Positions 31-34,611 of a DNA stretch of 45,144 nucleotides are shown piece after piece. A program made the position numbers and the translations under genes. The notes beneath the pieces were generated by a model that saw only the letters and a program-made list of their open reading frames with translations, searched no databases and was not told the DNA's origin. Source of the stretch: an uncultured bacterium. Lineage in GTDB: Bacteria; Patescibacteriota; Minisyncoccia; Phycocordibacterales; UBA9973. Position 1 is the stretch's first letter. Every line of letters begins with the position of its first letter. The DNA is taken from assembly GCA_903894955.1 (NCBI GenBank), contig CAITSA010000004.1:1-45144 (forward strand). Reading direction: 5' to 3'.

Positions 31-1128
31 ATGCAAAAGAAAAAAGTGAAAAAAGTCGATAAAACAGTAGGTGGAGTTGTGCTCGAAGATACCTTAAAAG
101 CAATTCAAACAAAATTTGGTGAAGGATCTATTATGAAATTCGGTGATTCGCCAAAAGTAGACATCAATACAATACCAACTGGTTCTATTGGTCTTGATAT
201 GGCGCTTGGTGTCGGAGGAATACCGCGTGGTAGAATTATAGAAATTTTTGGTCCAGAATCTTCTGGAAAAACAACTCTTTCTCTGCACATTGTAGCCGAA
301 GCTCAGAAAAAGGGTGGGGTTTGCGCTTATATAGATGCCGAACACGCAATGGATCCAGATTATACAAAAAAGCTTGGAGTCAATATAAATGATTTGCTTA
401 TTTCTCAACCAGATAATGGCGAGCAAGCCCTCGAAATTGTAGAGTCCTTGGTCCGAACTGGAAAAATTGATGTTATCGTCGTAGATTCCGTTGCTGCCTT
501 AACCCCTAAAGATGAAATCGAAGGCGATATGGGAGCATATCATGTTGGTAAACAAGCCCGTCTAATGTCTCAAGCCCTTCGCAAACTGACGGCTATCGTC
601 GCCCGATCTAAAACTGTTGTTATTTTTATAAATCAAATCCGCATGCAAATCGGAGTGATGTTTGGTAATCCAGAAACCACCCCAGGAGGAAAAGCCTTAA
701 AGTTTTATACTTCTGTTCGACTTGATATTCGAAAAATCGCCCAAATAAAAAAGGGAGAAGAAGTGGTGGGCAGTCGTACCCGTGTGAAGGTAGTAAAAAA
801 CAAAGTGGCCGCTCCATTTAAGCAGACAGAGTTTGATATTATTTACAACGAAGGTATTTCCAAAGAAGGTGAGATTATGGCTTTAGGAGAGAAGTTCAAA
901 ATTATAGAAAAGACTGGGAATTCGTATTTCTACCTGCCTGCCGGACAGGCAGGCACGCCAGCTGGCGAGAAAGCACCTGCCCGACACGCTGACGCGAGCC
1001 ATGCGGGCGGGGAAAAAATAAAATTGGGAGTAGGCTATGATTCTACCCGCACCTTCTTGAAAGAAAATAAAAAAACATCAGATCAAATCTTAAAAGAAAT
1101 TCGCAAAAAGTTTGCCGAGGAAGTATAA
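31..1128 (+). CDS. recA: Recombinase RecA
   Basis: GPESSGKTT Walker [40 protein letters not shown]; C-terminal region carries two palindromic in-frame inserts. Confidence 0.99.
933..953. repeat. 21-nt palindromic element in frame in recA (CCTGCC...GGCAGG family)
   Basis: CCTGCCTG-CCGGA-CAGGCAGG, perfect 8-bp stem; encodes LPAGQAG. Confidence 0.85.
976..1011. repeat. 36-nt hairpin element in frame in recA (CCTGCC...GGCGGG family)
   Basis: CCTGCCCG...CGGGCGGG ends (one G-T pair); encodes [12 protein letters not shown]. Confidence 0.75.
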
Positions 1129-1151
1129 AGATATCTTTTTTTTCTTTTAAT

Positions 1152-1179
1152 TTGATTTAATAAATTAATCTGTTAGTAT
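1152..1179 (+). promoter_or_regulatory. Putative sigma70 promoter of efp (extended -10, probably leaderless)
   Basis: TTGATT at 1152, 16-nt spacer to TAGTAT; extended -10 TGTTAGTAT ends 7 nt before ATG 1187. Confidence 0.55.
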
Positions 1180-1186
1180 ATTGGTT

Positions 1187-1765
1187 ATGGCTCAATTAGA
1201 ATACAGTGCAATTCGTGAGAAAAAAATAATTATCCATGATGATGAACCATGCGAAGTGGTAGAGTCTCATGTCGCTCGCACCCAACAAAGAAAACCACAA
1301 AATCAAGTAAAATTACGAAGTTTAATATCTGGCAAGGTCTTCCCTGCCACATATCATGTTTCTGACTCTGCAATGGAGGCTGATGTTGCAAAACGTGAAA
1401 TTACTTTTTTATATTCTAATAAGGGTGAATTTTGGTTTTGTGACCCAGAAGATAAAAGTAAAAGATTTAAATTAGCCGAAAACCTTATTGGAAACACTGC
1501 TAAATTTTTAAAACAAAATGGAAATGTCACCGCCCTCGTCTGGGACAATGACGATGAAGAAACAATTATAAAAGTCACTCTACCTATTAAAATGGAATTT
1601 CTTATAAAAGAAGCTCCACCGGCTGTCCGAGGAGATACTTCAAAGGGTGGGATGAAGGTTATTACCTTAGAAAATGGTACAACTCTAAATGCACCGATGT
1701 TTATAAAAGAAGGAGATAAAGTAAGTATCAATACGGAAACTGGAGAATATGTAGAACGAGTATAA
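1187..1765 (+). CDS. efp: Elongation factor P
   Basis: FLYS..FWFCD, PAVRGDT, LENG..APMFIKEGD..INTETGEYVER; ATG at 1187 preferred over TTG 1181. Confidence 0.95.
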   Translation: MAQLEYSAIREKKIIIHDDEPCEVVESHVARTQQRKPQNQVKLRSLISGKVFPATYHVSDSAMEADVAKREITFLYSNKGEFWFCDPEDKSKRFKLAENLIGNTAKFLKQNGNVTALVWDNDDEETIIKVTLPIKMEFLIKEAPPAVRGDTSKGGMKVITLENGTTLNAPMFIKEGDKVSINTETGEYVERV

Positions 1766-32429: not shown

Positions 32430-32447
32430 TTAAAATTATTTAGAATC

Positions 32448-32921
32448 TTATTTTTTTAATACCACCGGCTCGCCATCTGCAAAGCTAGTGGCAATAACGT
32501 CCGCTCTTTCGTTGTATTTATCTCCATTATGTCCTTTGACATAAGTCCATTTTATTTTTTGATCTTGGGTAAGTTTATAAAGTTCTTCCCAAAGTTCTTT
32601 ATTTAAAACTGGTTTTTTGGCAGCATTTCGCCAATTATTTTTCTGCCAATTAAAAATCCATTCAGTAATTCCTAAAATCACATACTTCGAATCAGAAACA
32701 ATCTCAATGTCAAAGACCGTCTTTGACATTTTATGTTTTAAATATTTAAGGGCTTCTACCGGCGCGGTCAGTTCCATTTGATTGTTCGTCGCATGATCTA
32801 CCCCACCACCAATTTCAACTATATCTTTTCCAAAAATAAAAACAGCGCCCCAACCCGCACGCCCCGGATTCCCTTTTGCCGCTCCATCGGTATAAATTTT
32901 TACACTATTTTTTTCTTGCAT
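32448..32921 (-). CDS. rnhA: Ribonuclease HI
   Basis: YTDGAAKGNPG, TNNQMEL, SDSKYV, VKGHNG..NERAD. Confidence 0.97.
   Translation of the reverse strand: MQEKNSVKIYTDGAAKGNPGRAGWGAVFIFGKDIVEIGGGVDHATNNQMELTAPVEALKYLKHKMSKTVFDIEIVSDSKYVILGITEWIFNWQKNNWRNAAKKPVLNKELWEELYKLTQDQKIKWTYVKGHNGDKYNERADVIATSFADGEPVVLKK
32706..32730. repeat. 25-nt perfect palindrome in frame in rnhA
   Basis: AATGTCAAAGAC-C-GTCTTTGACATT (12-bp arms); core resembles the comEC units; encodes MSKTVFDI. Confidence 0.8.
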
Positions 32922-32925
32922 TTTT

Positions 32926-34611
32926 TTATATTATATCCTCTATTCTCAATCTTAACTCAACTCTTTCTCTAAATCTAGATAAATCAAAAGTAGCCAGTAA
33001 ATTTACCTTCAGTCCTTCTAATAAAGTATTTTCAAAAGAATCAAGATTAGAGAAAAAGGAAATTGCTTTGGCTTTATTCGCACTGGAATCAGAAAACATA
33101 ATTTCTAAATGTTCCCCCGAACCATTTTTTCCAAATTTTTTTATTTTTTCTATCTTCACATTTTCAAAAAGAAAAATAGGTTTTGGATTTCCAAATCCAA
33201 AGGGCATTAATTTTTCTATCTCACGCCAGTTTTTAATATTTACTATACTTAAATCAGATTTAACATCATAAATTATTTTATTTTCTATTTTCCCTCTTTT
33301 TACTTTATTAAAAGTCATAGATAATGCTTCTTCTAAAAAATGAATTTTTTCATTATGAACAGTAAATCCACCGGCTAGTTCATGACCACCAAAATCAATA
33401 AAAGATTCATTGGTTTCAGACATAAGCTCCACGATAGACACTGATCCATCGCTCCGACAAGATCCTTTAATGCAATCATTTTCGTCTTTGCCCCAAACAA
33501 AAACTGGCTTTTGATGTTCATCGCAAATTTTCCCCGCCACCAACCCCAACACGCCCACCCGCCACTTTGGATTGCCTATCACTATCACCTCGCGCAATTC
33601 ATTCACTTCCCGCTTTTCAAAATTTTTATTTACCTCACGCATAATACTCTTCACAATAGTTTTTCTTTCATCATTTATTTTAGACAGATGGTCTGCAAGT
33701 ACGCCGGCCTCTACTTCATCACTTGTAGCGAGAAGCTCGTAAGCTCTCATTGGATCATCCATGCGCGAAGCAGCATTTAGTCTGGGGGTAATCATAAAAC
33801 CAAGATCGTCTTCTGTAAGATATTTTTGATCAATATTCATTTTAGTCAAAAGTTTTTGTAATCCTGGACGAGGAGATTTTTTTAAAACTTTCATCCCAAA
33901 ATATGCCATCGCTCTATTCTCTCCTGAGAGTGGAACCATATCAGAAAGCGTCGCTAAGCCAGCCATATCTAGCATCCATTTCTCTGTACCATCTTTTATT
34001 TTATAAAATTCACTATATTTTTTAAAAAAAGCTTGCACAAATTTAAAAGCAACCCCTGCCCCACATAACATTTTCTCCGGATAGTCATCTACTTTTGGAT
34101 TTAAAATTGCATAAGCGCGAGGGAGATCAAAAGAGGCAAGCCCCACCGAGGCTGGCCGGGGTAAATGATGGTCTATAATAATCACGTCAATTCCATCGAC
34201 TTTTGCTTGAGCCACTTCGGCTACCGCCGTAATCCCAAGATCAATAGTGATTAAAAGTTTTACGGTAGACTTGGCAAATTGTTTTAAAGCTTCTAGATTG
34301 AGTCCATAACCTTCAGAATTTCTTTGGGGAATATAAATTTCATAATTAGTAAAATTTATTTTTTTAAACAAATCTTGCATAATTACTGCTCCTGGAATTC
34401 CATCACAATCGTAATCCGCATAAATAATTATTTTTTCTTTATTTTCTATGGCTTCATATAACCTGACGCAGGCCTTCTCCATATCACGCATTAAAAATGG
34501 ATCATGAAAATCTCGTTCATAATCAGGATTTAAAAAAATATCTGCCTTTTTTTCATCAGTAATACCTCTCTTTTCTAAAAGGGTTCGCAGTAATTCTCCA
34601 TATCTTTGCAT
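32926..34611 (-). CDS. recJ: ssDNA exonuclease RecJ
   Basis: DYDCDG, EGYGLN, IDHH, CGAGV, PRLNAASR, GSCRS, GGHELAGG, PFGFGNPKP. Confidence 0.97.
   Translation of the reverse strand: MQRYGELLRTLLEKRGITDEKKADIFLNPDYERDFHDPFLMRDMEKACVRLYEAIENKEKIIIYADYDCDGIPGAVIMQDLFKKINFTNYEIYIPQRNSEGYGLNLEALKQFAKSTVKLLITIDLGITAVAEVAQAKVDGIDVIIIDHHLPRPASVGLASFDLPRAYAILNPKVDDYPEKMLCGAGVAFKFVQAFFKKYSEFYKIKDGTEKWMLDMAGLATLSDMVPLSGENRAMAYFGMKVLKKSPRPGLQKLLTKMNIDQKYLTEDDLGFMITPRLNAASRMDDPMRAYELLATSDEVEAGVLADHLSKINDERKTIVKSIMREVNKNFEKREVNELREVIVIGNPKWRVGVLGLVAGKICDEHQKPVFVWGKDENDCIKGSCRSDGSVSIVELMSETNESFIDFGGHELAGGFTVHNEKIHFLEEALSMTFNKVKRGKIENKIIYDVKSDLSIVNIKNWREIEKLMPFGFGNPKPIFLFENVKIEKIKKFGKNGSGEHLEIMFSDSSANKAKAISFFSNLDSFENTLLEGLKVNLLATFDLSRFRERVELRLRIEDII
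34136..34162. repeat. GC-rich insert in frame right after the RecJ DHH motif (ACCCC...GGGGC ends)
   Basis: Coding strand ACCCCGGCCAGCCTCGGTGGGGCTTGC; encodes PRPASVGLA. Confidence 0.55.

Follow-up and report, generated by a model that had tools for sequence, protein, structure and literature searches.

We analysed a stretch of 45,144 bases (the window), which is the entire contig C4 of G000, a draft genome of a Candidate Phyla Radiation bacterium (626,787 bases, 31 contigs, ∼35% GC, 77% complete). In this genome, short palindromic hairpins form dispersed families and are found as lineage-specific, in-frame inserts within protein-coding genes, and the hairpins of some families bracket nuclease genes. 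We consider it likely that the inserts are mobile hairpins of many short families (∼20–105 nt, mostly GC-rich), akin to the repetitive extragenic palindromes (REPs) and the Rickettsia palindromic elements (RPEs), which survive in permissive protein loops. An earlier note, made from the letters of the window alone, had proposed that families of micro-elements add peptide loops to proteins; this proposal is supported by the insertions seen among orthologues, by an excess of hairpins over codon-shuffled genomes and by the presence of the families genome-wide.

Firstly, we compared the host proteins with their orthologues. Gene order across the window is kept in seven genomes of the same genus, so that every host protein could be aligned with those of the seven syntenic regions (eight genomes with G000). 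Hairpins are present at all the positions listed in the earlier note (Table 1), and its eight host gene names are confirmed, by Pfam for TatD, a class II aminoacyl-tRNA synthetase (GlyRS-like), IleS, Pif1, ComEC, RNase H and RecJ, and by Protein Data Bank matches for RecA. Relative to same-genus orthologues, 10 of the 13 sites carry a clean in-frame insertion that is specific to a lineage. The remaining three (ileS 15771, rnhA 32706 and pif1 22834) are less clean and lie in variable loops or linkers; at ileS 15771 the insertion is combined with the replacement of part of the original loop residues. The glyS insert was found in G000 only among the eight genomes, and the tatD site, given as probable in the earlier note, is an insert of 7 aa missing in four of the seven syntenic relatives, with a weak hairpin. 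At ileS 17648, a codon-by-codon comparison of G000, where the site is filled, with G015, G018 and G006, where it is empty, showed that the adjoining codons are conserved. No target-site duplication was found at this exact 21-nt insert or at glyS, the only two sites clean enough to judge. The comEC 32060 element is also a clean insertion. For pif1, 23 further loci were compared (24 sequences with the window copy): the segment at 22834 is present in 4 of the 24 and missing from L199, which is 79% identical. A second pif1 hairpin, at 23958, was rejected as an insert, its sequence being conserved.

At several of these sites, one and the same loop carries different inserts in different congeners: this is the case in RecA, ileS 15771, comEC, recJ and tatD. 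Other 7-aa inserts are found at the tatD site in G006 and G015, a family C doublet (families are designated here by letters) occupies the loop of ileS 15771 in G007, and a different insert occupies the recJ 34136 site in G006; at the loop of rnhA 32706, G015 carries a similar peptide. RecA was followed further, by searching 41 relatives, which gave 30 loci, and by aligning 22 further same-genus RecA loci. The two recA hairpins of the earlier note (933 and 976) form a single composite insert, giving a net gain of 19 aa over the short form, a 23-residue segment found in 13 same-genus sequences, and lying in an 83-nt GC island that folds at −44.3 kcal/mol. Five other congeners have different inserts at the same loop, and inserts of at least 6 aa, of several different kinds, are present in 6 of 23 same-genus sequences. 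The HMMER alignment of the window RecA with E. coli RecA is interrupted between residues 302 and 328, a gap that faces a single residue of the solved chain, at what we take to be a hairpin turn in the C-terminal domain. Only this alignment break was used, as a single-sequence AlphaFold model of RecA (mean pLDDT 36.5) was discarded. A second recA fragment, 96% identical to the window recA, is present at C30:1-411 of G000, and a stretch of at least ∼65 nt is present at both the start of C16 and the end of C25; these duplications point to strain heterogeneity or unresolved draft-assembly overlaps.

Secondly, we assessed whether the hairpins exceed chance. A perfect-stem scan (7 hairpins in the window, 45 in the genome) proved too strict and was replaced by a thermodynamic scan, in which 40-nt segments within open reading frames (ORFs) were compared with those of six genomes whose codons had been permuted within each ORF. 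At −18 kcal/mol or below, 61 in-ORF hairpin regions were found, against 7.5±2.9 in the permuted genomes; at −20 kcal/mol the numbers were 32 and 0.8, and at −24 kcal/mol 13 and 0.17. Thus the earlier note's own alternatives, namely that orthologues carry the same residues without indels and that the motifs are no more frequent than codon shuffling predicts, both fail. The lengths in multiples of three that it had pointed to are indeed seen, but they follow from the ORFs being intact and are no independent evidence. An unbiased scan of 24 orthologous genes in the eight genomes gave 66 minority inserts of at least 5 aa; 28 of them have at least 50% GC, and 22 of these 28 are also hairpin-forming. 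Such hairpin-type inserts are present in six of the eight genomes, with 0/3 in G013 and 0/9 in G017. Their number per syntenic region follows the count of the transposase genes described below (Spearman 0.80, n=8), which is only a hint, because the genomes are related. A comparison of raw hairpin counts across the syntenic regions was dropped as confounded by GC content (G015 has 46% GC).

Thirdly, we asked how the hairpins are distributed in the genome. Families were defined by repeated GC-rich 11-mers and seed searches, and ORFs, which cover 91% of G000, by a greedy longest-ORF rule without a gene finder. The several sequence families seen by the earlier note extend to at least 15 dispersed families; 15 seed patterns returned 106 copies, and element lengths are mostly 21–60 nt, with one of ∼103 nt. 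Families D, I, M and N have 6, 10, 3 and 5 copies in G000, and the C type has 14. Sixty-five copies lie in ORFs and 41 outside, corresponding to densities of 0.11 and 0.73 per kb (∼6.5-fold, binomial p=1e-16). Per base, coding copies are therefore a tolerated minority, not a preference. Fifty-nine copies are well inside ORFs of at least 120 aa, and all 59 are frame-keeping and stop-free, it being understood that frame-breaking copies could not be scored as in an ORF. Within a family, intragenic copies are mostly read in one phase and encode the same peptide: 44 of the 59 are in the modal phase of their own family, with 12/15 for A2 (chi-square p=4e-4), 6/8 for A, 4/4 for B and 4/4 for D. Some intergenic copies are followed by T runs, as in terminators. 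With just 2–18 copies per family, the hairpins are too few to be DNA-uptake sequences, and this possibility was rejected.

Several of these families are associated with genes resembling those of REP-associated tyrosine transposases (RAYTs). G000 carries five divergent RAYT-like Y1 (HUH) transposase genes encoding proteins of ∼200–250 aa. Four of the proteins match Pfam Y1_Tnp (PF01797) above the gathering cut-off and the fifth was recovered by protein search; the sequences show both the HUH (His-hydrophobic-His) motif and the catalytic Tyr motif. The REP-associated tyrosine transposase model NF047646 is the best NCBIfam match of 4/4 proteins, which are distant relatives of its members rather than equivalogs. 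Each paralogue is unique, with 40–52% identity to the C26 copy. A TnpB partner (PF07282) was not found in G000, at 77% completeness. Four of the five genes have their own palindrome on both sides, and the fifth, whose 5′ end is cut by a contig end, has one downstream; among the flanking palindromes are those of families C, D, I, M and N. Solo copies in the window are of the same types. A 19-mer in rnhA 32706 is identical to the palindrome that follows the RAYT-like gene C14:3-605, and it also precedes a RAYT-like gene in G007 (L092). The palindrome type of the comEC doublet flanks RAYT-like genes in three other genomes (L090, L103 and L104), and the C27 gene is flanked by palindromes matching the intergenic copy of family I at 24304.

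The same association recurs beyond G000. RAYT-like matches were obtained in 49 of the 61 genomes of the genus, with up to 12 per genome, and a word of at least 10 nt is common to both flanks in 27 of 29 RAYT-like loci. Among further paralogues, at least 9 of 20 have the same palindrome on both sides. Ten more loci, in which gene ends were extrapolated from partial matches, comprise six flanked on both sides, three in which just one flank or an internal copy was seen and one without any. In the order, Y1_Tnp is present in 89 of 151 genomes (79 of 131 genera). In L106–L109, L111 and the gene C27:28916-29635 of G000, the flanking palindrome is also found inside the coding sequence, ∼60–100 codons from the start.

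A second class of nuclease gene is bracketed in the same manner. G000 has three DUF559 (Vsr-like) endonuclease genes. The one in the window has inverted, GC-rich, family E-type arms at ∼4817–4853 and 5213–5252, is present in one of the seven syntenic relatives, and shares its arms-plus-DUF559 arrangement with other loci of the genus. Its arms are of the GC-rich type that forms the solo insert at ileS 15336, the architecture of which matches that of arms beside DUF559 genes. Another DUF559 gene has family L palindromes on its flanks. The third forms a cassette, with a hairpin arm at either end and with a start codon and ribosome-binding site of its own, which occupies about residues 237–393, in frame, of a leucyl-tRNA synthetase (LeuRS) ORF (C11:3374-6682, 1103 aa, partly covered by L223); this segment is missing in most of 24 relatives with a match and present in G010. 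Across the genus, 33 of 61 genomes have a DUF559 match, and an inverted word of at least 9 nt is common to both flanks in 21 of 30 loci. DUF559 proteins are thus possible mobile endonucleases with palindromic arms; a literature search, judged by titles and the openings of abstracts, listed no report of palindrome-flanked mobile DUF559 genes. When all 621 ORFs of G000 were scanned for shared GC-rich flank words, nine were retrieved, including three RAYT-like genes, the window DUF559 gene and a small GIY-YIG nuclease gene.

Three further observations concern these loci. A 17-nt inverted repeat borders the GIY-YIG gene (83 aa, C1:36058-36312, L257) and recurs in shorter form on C11 and C28; the gene may represent a third class of repeat-bracketed nuclease. 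On contig C6 of G013, two LeuRS matches are separated by ∼540 nt (44667 to 45208) at the point of the G000 cassette, which suggests a different large insert at that site. Residues ∼508–686 of the G000 LeuRS are missing in several relatives and look by eye like a Nudix-type segment.

The largest element, at ileS 17769, was found in G000 and G007 only. It folds at −67 kcal/mol. When the two species are compared over 38 base pairs, 30 are unchanged, 3 differ on one side, 5 show compensatory changes and none is broken. A core of ∼39 nt is identical between them, whereas the whole aligned stretch is 79% identical. Metagenome (Logan) contigs pile up on this core, with a depth spike, loose ends and diverging edges. 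Either the independent insertion of related family members or a constraint on the hairpin would explain this pattern. Logan contigs, possibly from the source sample, bridge the glyS element, with an identical sequence, and three ileS elements. Four intergenic loci of G000, L217–L220 (C1:29350-29570, C1:53600-53820, C28:60870-61090 and C30:4160-4380), have in common a ∼90-nt element in which a small terminator-like hairpin precedes a conserved stretch that includes a 16-nt core of ileS 17769; it corresponds to no Rfam family. Around 17700–17950 and at six related G000 loci, only chance-level Rfam matches below threshold were obtained.

Table 1. Hairpin elements and associated features in the window (positions on the 45,144-base stretch)
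Feature	Position	Strand	Description
recA composite GC-rich insert	933–1012	+	Family A hairpin at 933–953; short palindrome at ∼958–971; second hairpin at 976–1012
tatD 7-aa insert	4183–4215	−	Weak hairpin, −8.9 kcal/mol
DUF559 ORF with arms	4814–5252	−	ORF at 4814–5200, PF04480 E=1.6e-31
glyS family B hairpin	10843–10877	−	Glycyl-tRNA synthetase gene, net +9 aa
ileS family E-type solo hairpin	15336–15395	−	+17 aa
ileS hairpin insert	15549–15575	−	+6 aa, −14.2 kcal/mol
ileS family B hairpin	15771–15806	−	Net +4 aa
ileS exact 21-nt insert	17648–17668	−	Degenerate family A type, +7 aa
ileS branched hairpin element	17769–17871	−	∼103 nt, family H core inside, ∼+30 aa
Hairpin in LCAT-like 1006-aa ORF (PF02450)	21029–21052	−	−17.7 kcal/mol; not among the sites of the earlier note
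pif1 hairpin	22834–22857	−	Perfect 10-bp stem in variable C-terminal linker, −24.4 kcal/mol
Intergenic family I copy	24304–24322	.	Family flanking the RAYT-like gene on contig C27
comEC family C doublet	32060–32101	−	Two inverted 13-nt palindromes with 14-nt spacing, REPIN-like (REPIN, REP doublet forming a hairpin)
rnhA family D palindrome	32706–32730	−	Variable loop
recJ hairpin insert	34136–34162	−	+8 aa

From the pairing of genes and palindromes, we infer that the RAYT-like and DUF559 enzymes mobilise the hairpins; the solo hairpins look like cargo-less forms of the RAYT-like and DUF559 cassettes. For the Y1 class, insertion would probably proceed via single-stranded DNA and leave no target duplication, with which the absence of duplication at the two clean sites is consistent. 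Selection would then filter the insertions, so that in genes only frame-keeping, stop-free copies with a tolerable peptide persist. These copies would sit in a permissive surface loop or linker and be translated as extra loop residues. Such a filter would explain why different families recur at the same handful of loops, why copies are sparser within ORFs and why each family favours one codon phase.

Several points weigh against this reading of the inserts as mobile hairpins. In ∼90 loci examined, no RAYT-like or DUF559 gene lies beside a hairpin of families A, A2, B, F or H, to which the recA, glyS and large ileS inserts belong, and the scan of the 621 ORFs of G000 retrieved no gene flanked by any of them. 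The RAYT-like proteins score 31.1–60.9 bits against NF047646, under its 80-bit cut-off, and a consistent 5′ GTAG or GTGG tag was not established, the flanks having been inspected by eye only. Copy number per family is low (2–18, against the hundreds typical of REPINs), and the codon-phase bias could instead come from a target-site preference. The genome-wide in-ORF counts are approximate because of the greedy longest-ORF rule, and the draft is only 77% complete. Retention of the elements in mRNA and protein is assumed. In four lake-water DNA runs of one study, neither a junction skipping an element nor an empty-site allele was found; the contigs of these runs are short, of low depth and possibly derived from the source sample.

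The hairpins might also have spread without the help of the RAYT-like and DUF559 enzymes, by gene conversion, by template switching at hairpins during replication or repair, by uptake and recombination of foreign DNA or by another enzyme, the nuclease genes lying merely amid the repeats or being targeted by them. The five families with no associated gene in the examined loci agree with this, as do the RAYT-like genes, which often hold an internal copy of their own palindrome and may therefore be targets, and the ∼39-nt identical core of ileS 17769 within a 79% identical stretch, which fits conversion as well as recent re-insertion. We nonetheless regard enzyme-free spread as unlikely, since dozens of loci repeat the specific match between a paralogue and a flanking palindrome of its own, which, going by the available text of PMC3337134, is the published signature of REP–RAYT systems, and since the gene-flanking palindromes of families D, I, M, C, E and L have matching solo copies at dispersed positions. 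Less probable again is that the hairpins within genes are kept for a function, be it translation pausing, mRNA stability or processing, binding of RAYT-like proteins or a useful protein loop. The 38 of 38 pairs kept in ileS 17769 between two species, five of them by compensatory change, would fit a functional hairpin, and so would the terminator-like T runs of some intergenic copies and the strongly non-random use of frame. However, a compensatory pattern would also result from the acquisition, by the two species, of distinct members of one family in which mobility depends on the hairpin; the inserts are lineage-specific and differ at the same loop between close relatives, their hosts are unrelated proteins, and the elements are far denser outside ORFs. 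A bolder proposal, which we put forward as a speculation that is probably wrong, is that order-wide small nucleases (RAYT-like Y1, DUF559 and GIY-YIG) and their cargo-less hairpins form a standing engine of protein-length variation, grafting loops or whole nuclease domains in frame into RecA, IleS and LeuRS, the hairpins being conserved by compensatory change as DNA or RNA structures that act within genes, for example as sites for domesticated nucleases, and not being passengers.

Hairpins as stable as those found in the middle of ORFs, up to −67 kcal/mol, also raise the question of whether the elements are translated at all, or are instead lost from the mRNA by excision or passed over by the ribosome (translational bypassing); GC-rich inserts that are bypassed occur in AT-rich yeast mitochondrial genes. 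A frame constraint would be needless for a skipped element, and all 59 internal copies are in frame and stop-free (frame-breaking copies being unscored), with families mostly in one phase. This counts against untranslated elements, which we consider highly improbable. Hardly any weight is left for the idea that the inserts are artefacts of assembly or binning, or chance hairpins. The draft is a fragmented metagenome assembly (31 contigs, 77% complete) with a duplicated recA fragment and the C16/C25 repeat, but comparable inserts are present in seven other independently assembled genomes, the glyS element and three of those in ileS are spanned by Logan contigs that may stem from the source sample, and chance is excluded by the codon-permutation test.

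Genes are tightly packed in the window and lie predominantly on the minus strand. The ileS product (14384–18514, minus strand) has 1376 aa and contains a complete His_Phos_1 domain (residues 539–704) within the synthetase and an HD domain close to the C-terminus; blocks of 98 and 32 residues from about residue 1209, in its C-terminal part, are minority inserts of G000 in the eight-genome alignment. A histidinol dehydrogenase gene (7954–9135, minus strand) has no counterpart in the seven syntenic regions. ORFs 1781–2629, 19170–19541 and 24330–25001 are window-specific among the syntenic set and have no Pfam family, and the LCAT-like ORF has no orthologue in that set. The ∼650 nt at 18515–19169 contain no long ORF, and several GC-rich hairpins, such as one at 18847–18869 (−16.2 kcal/mol); neither a tRNA nor an Rfam match was found there. 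A tRNA search of the whole window found none, and an Rfam 15 search of it returned 0 matches at the gathering threshold.

The kind of system described here is already known, as intragenic REPs and RPEs have been published. The new features are the lineage, the families' small size and number, the high intragenic share in a minimal genome, the DUF559-linked class and the link to enzymes; we found no report of such elements in Candidate Phyla Radiation bacteria in the literature covered, which excludes subscription journals. These genomes serve as models of extreme streamlining, yet in the present genus there are up to 12 RAYT-like genes per genome of 0.6–0.8 Mb and more than a dozen selfish hairpin families, with many copies within essential genes. 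The abundance of Y1 genes is noteworthy because a survey (PMC6006769, available in part) placed them preferentially in larger genomes. REP–RAYT biology, known mainly from Proteobacteria, would extend to an uncultured phylum. The inserts provide many natural experiments on the insertion tolerance of protein loops. They also carry a warning for annotation, as odd Pro/Ala/Gly-rich segments in such proteins are element-derived.

Among known mobile elements, those of the IS200/IS605 group resemble the RAYT-like loci in having a Y1 HUH gene between subterminal hairpins and in inserting without target-site duplication; they differ in being present as multiple near-identical copies, often with tnpB, whereas the paralogues here are unique and no TnpB was found in G000. 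Homing endonuclease genes and inteins likewise place a small selfish nuclease gene within a host gene, as DUF559 is placed in LeuRS of G000 and G010, but no intein splicing domain or intron is evident here, the cassette has palindromic arms and the host frame stays open. Miniature inverted-repeat elements of DDE-type transposons were rejected, in view of the lack of target-site duplication at the exact 21-nt ileS insert and at glyS, the two sites that could be judged. The RPEs to which the earlier note had compared the inserts (Ogata et al. 2000, as described in the available parts of PMC10969869 and PMC3733652) are an apt parallel in behaviour: they are palindromic selfish families of a reduced genome, inserted in frame in housekeeping genes that are unrelated to one another, each family being read in a characteristic frame. 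In contrast, RPEs measure ∼100–150 bp, where the present elements are mostly 21–60 nt with one of ∼103 nt, and they belong to an unrelated lineage, whereas candidate mobilising genes are present here.

As far as the accessible text of Bertels and Rainey 2011 (PMC3337134) goes, the REPIN–RAYT system also has several divergent HUH/Tyr paralogues per genome, each with its own palindrome, and its inverted palindrome doublets resemble the comEC element; its proteins have ∼170 residues, against ∼200–250 for the present ones, which fall below the NCBIfam cut-off, and its classical elements are extragenic by definition and number hundreds, where those described here are few and often intragenic. In classical REPs, the foot of the hairpin has on its 5′ side a conserved guide tetranucleotide, GTAG or GTGG (PMC6006769, in its available part). 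G000 has the Y1 HUH transposases, the flanks formed by each gene's own palindrome, the divergent single-copy paralogues and the dispersed palindrome families of a REP–RAYT system. It lacks the NF047646 equivalog score and, with 65 of 106 copies in ORFs, the mainly extragenic location, and no consistent flank tag was established by eye; we therefore say that the system works like REP–RAYT and do not file it as a member. Intragenic REPs, tagged with GTAG or CGTC and many of them in replication and repair genes, were described in several species by Di Nocera et al. 2013; in the available part of that paper (PMC3733652), REPs are mostly intergenic, and some families have RAYT genes flanked by the repeats while others have no dedicated transposase. 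The elements of G000 differ from these in belonging to another phylum with genomes of 0.4–0.9 Mb, in their 65/106 share within ORFs, in far fewer copies per family with no terminal GTAG/CGTC tag demonstrated, and in the additional DUF559-linked class. The likeness, as far as that text shows, lies in palindromes of 20–40 nt within ORFs, single or as dimers, which encode extra residues; recA, recJ, pif1, rnhA and comEC are among the hosts here. RPEs are an analogue in behaviour only, and intragenic REPs tied to RAYT transposases are the closer published analogue.

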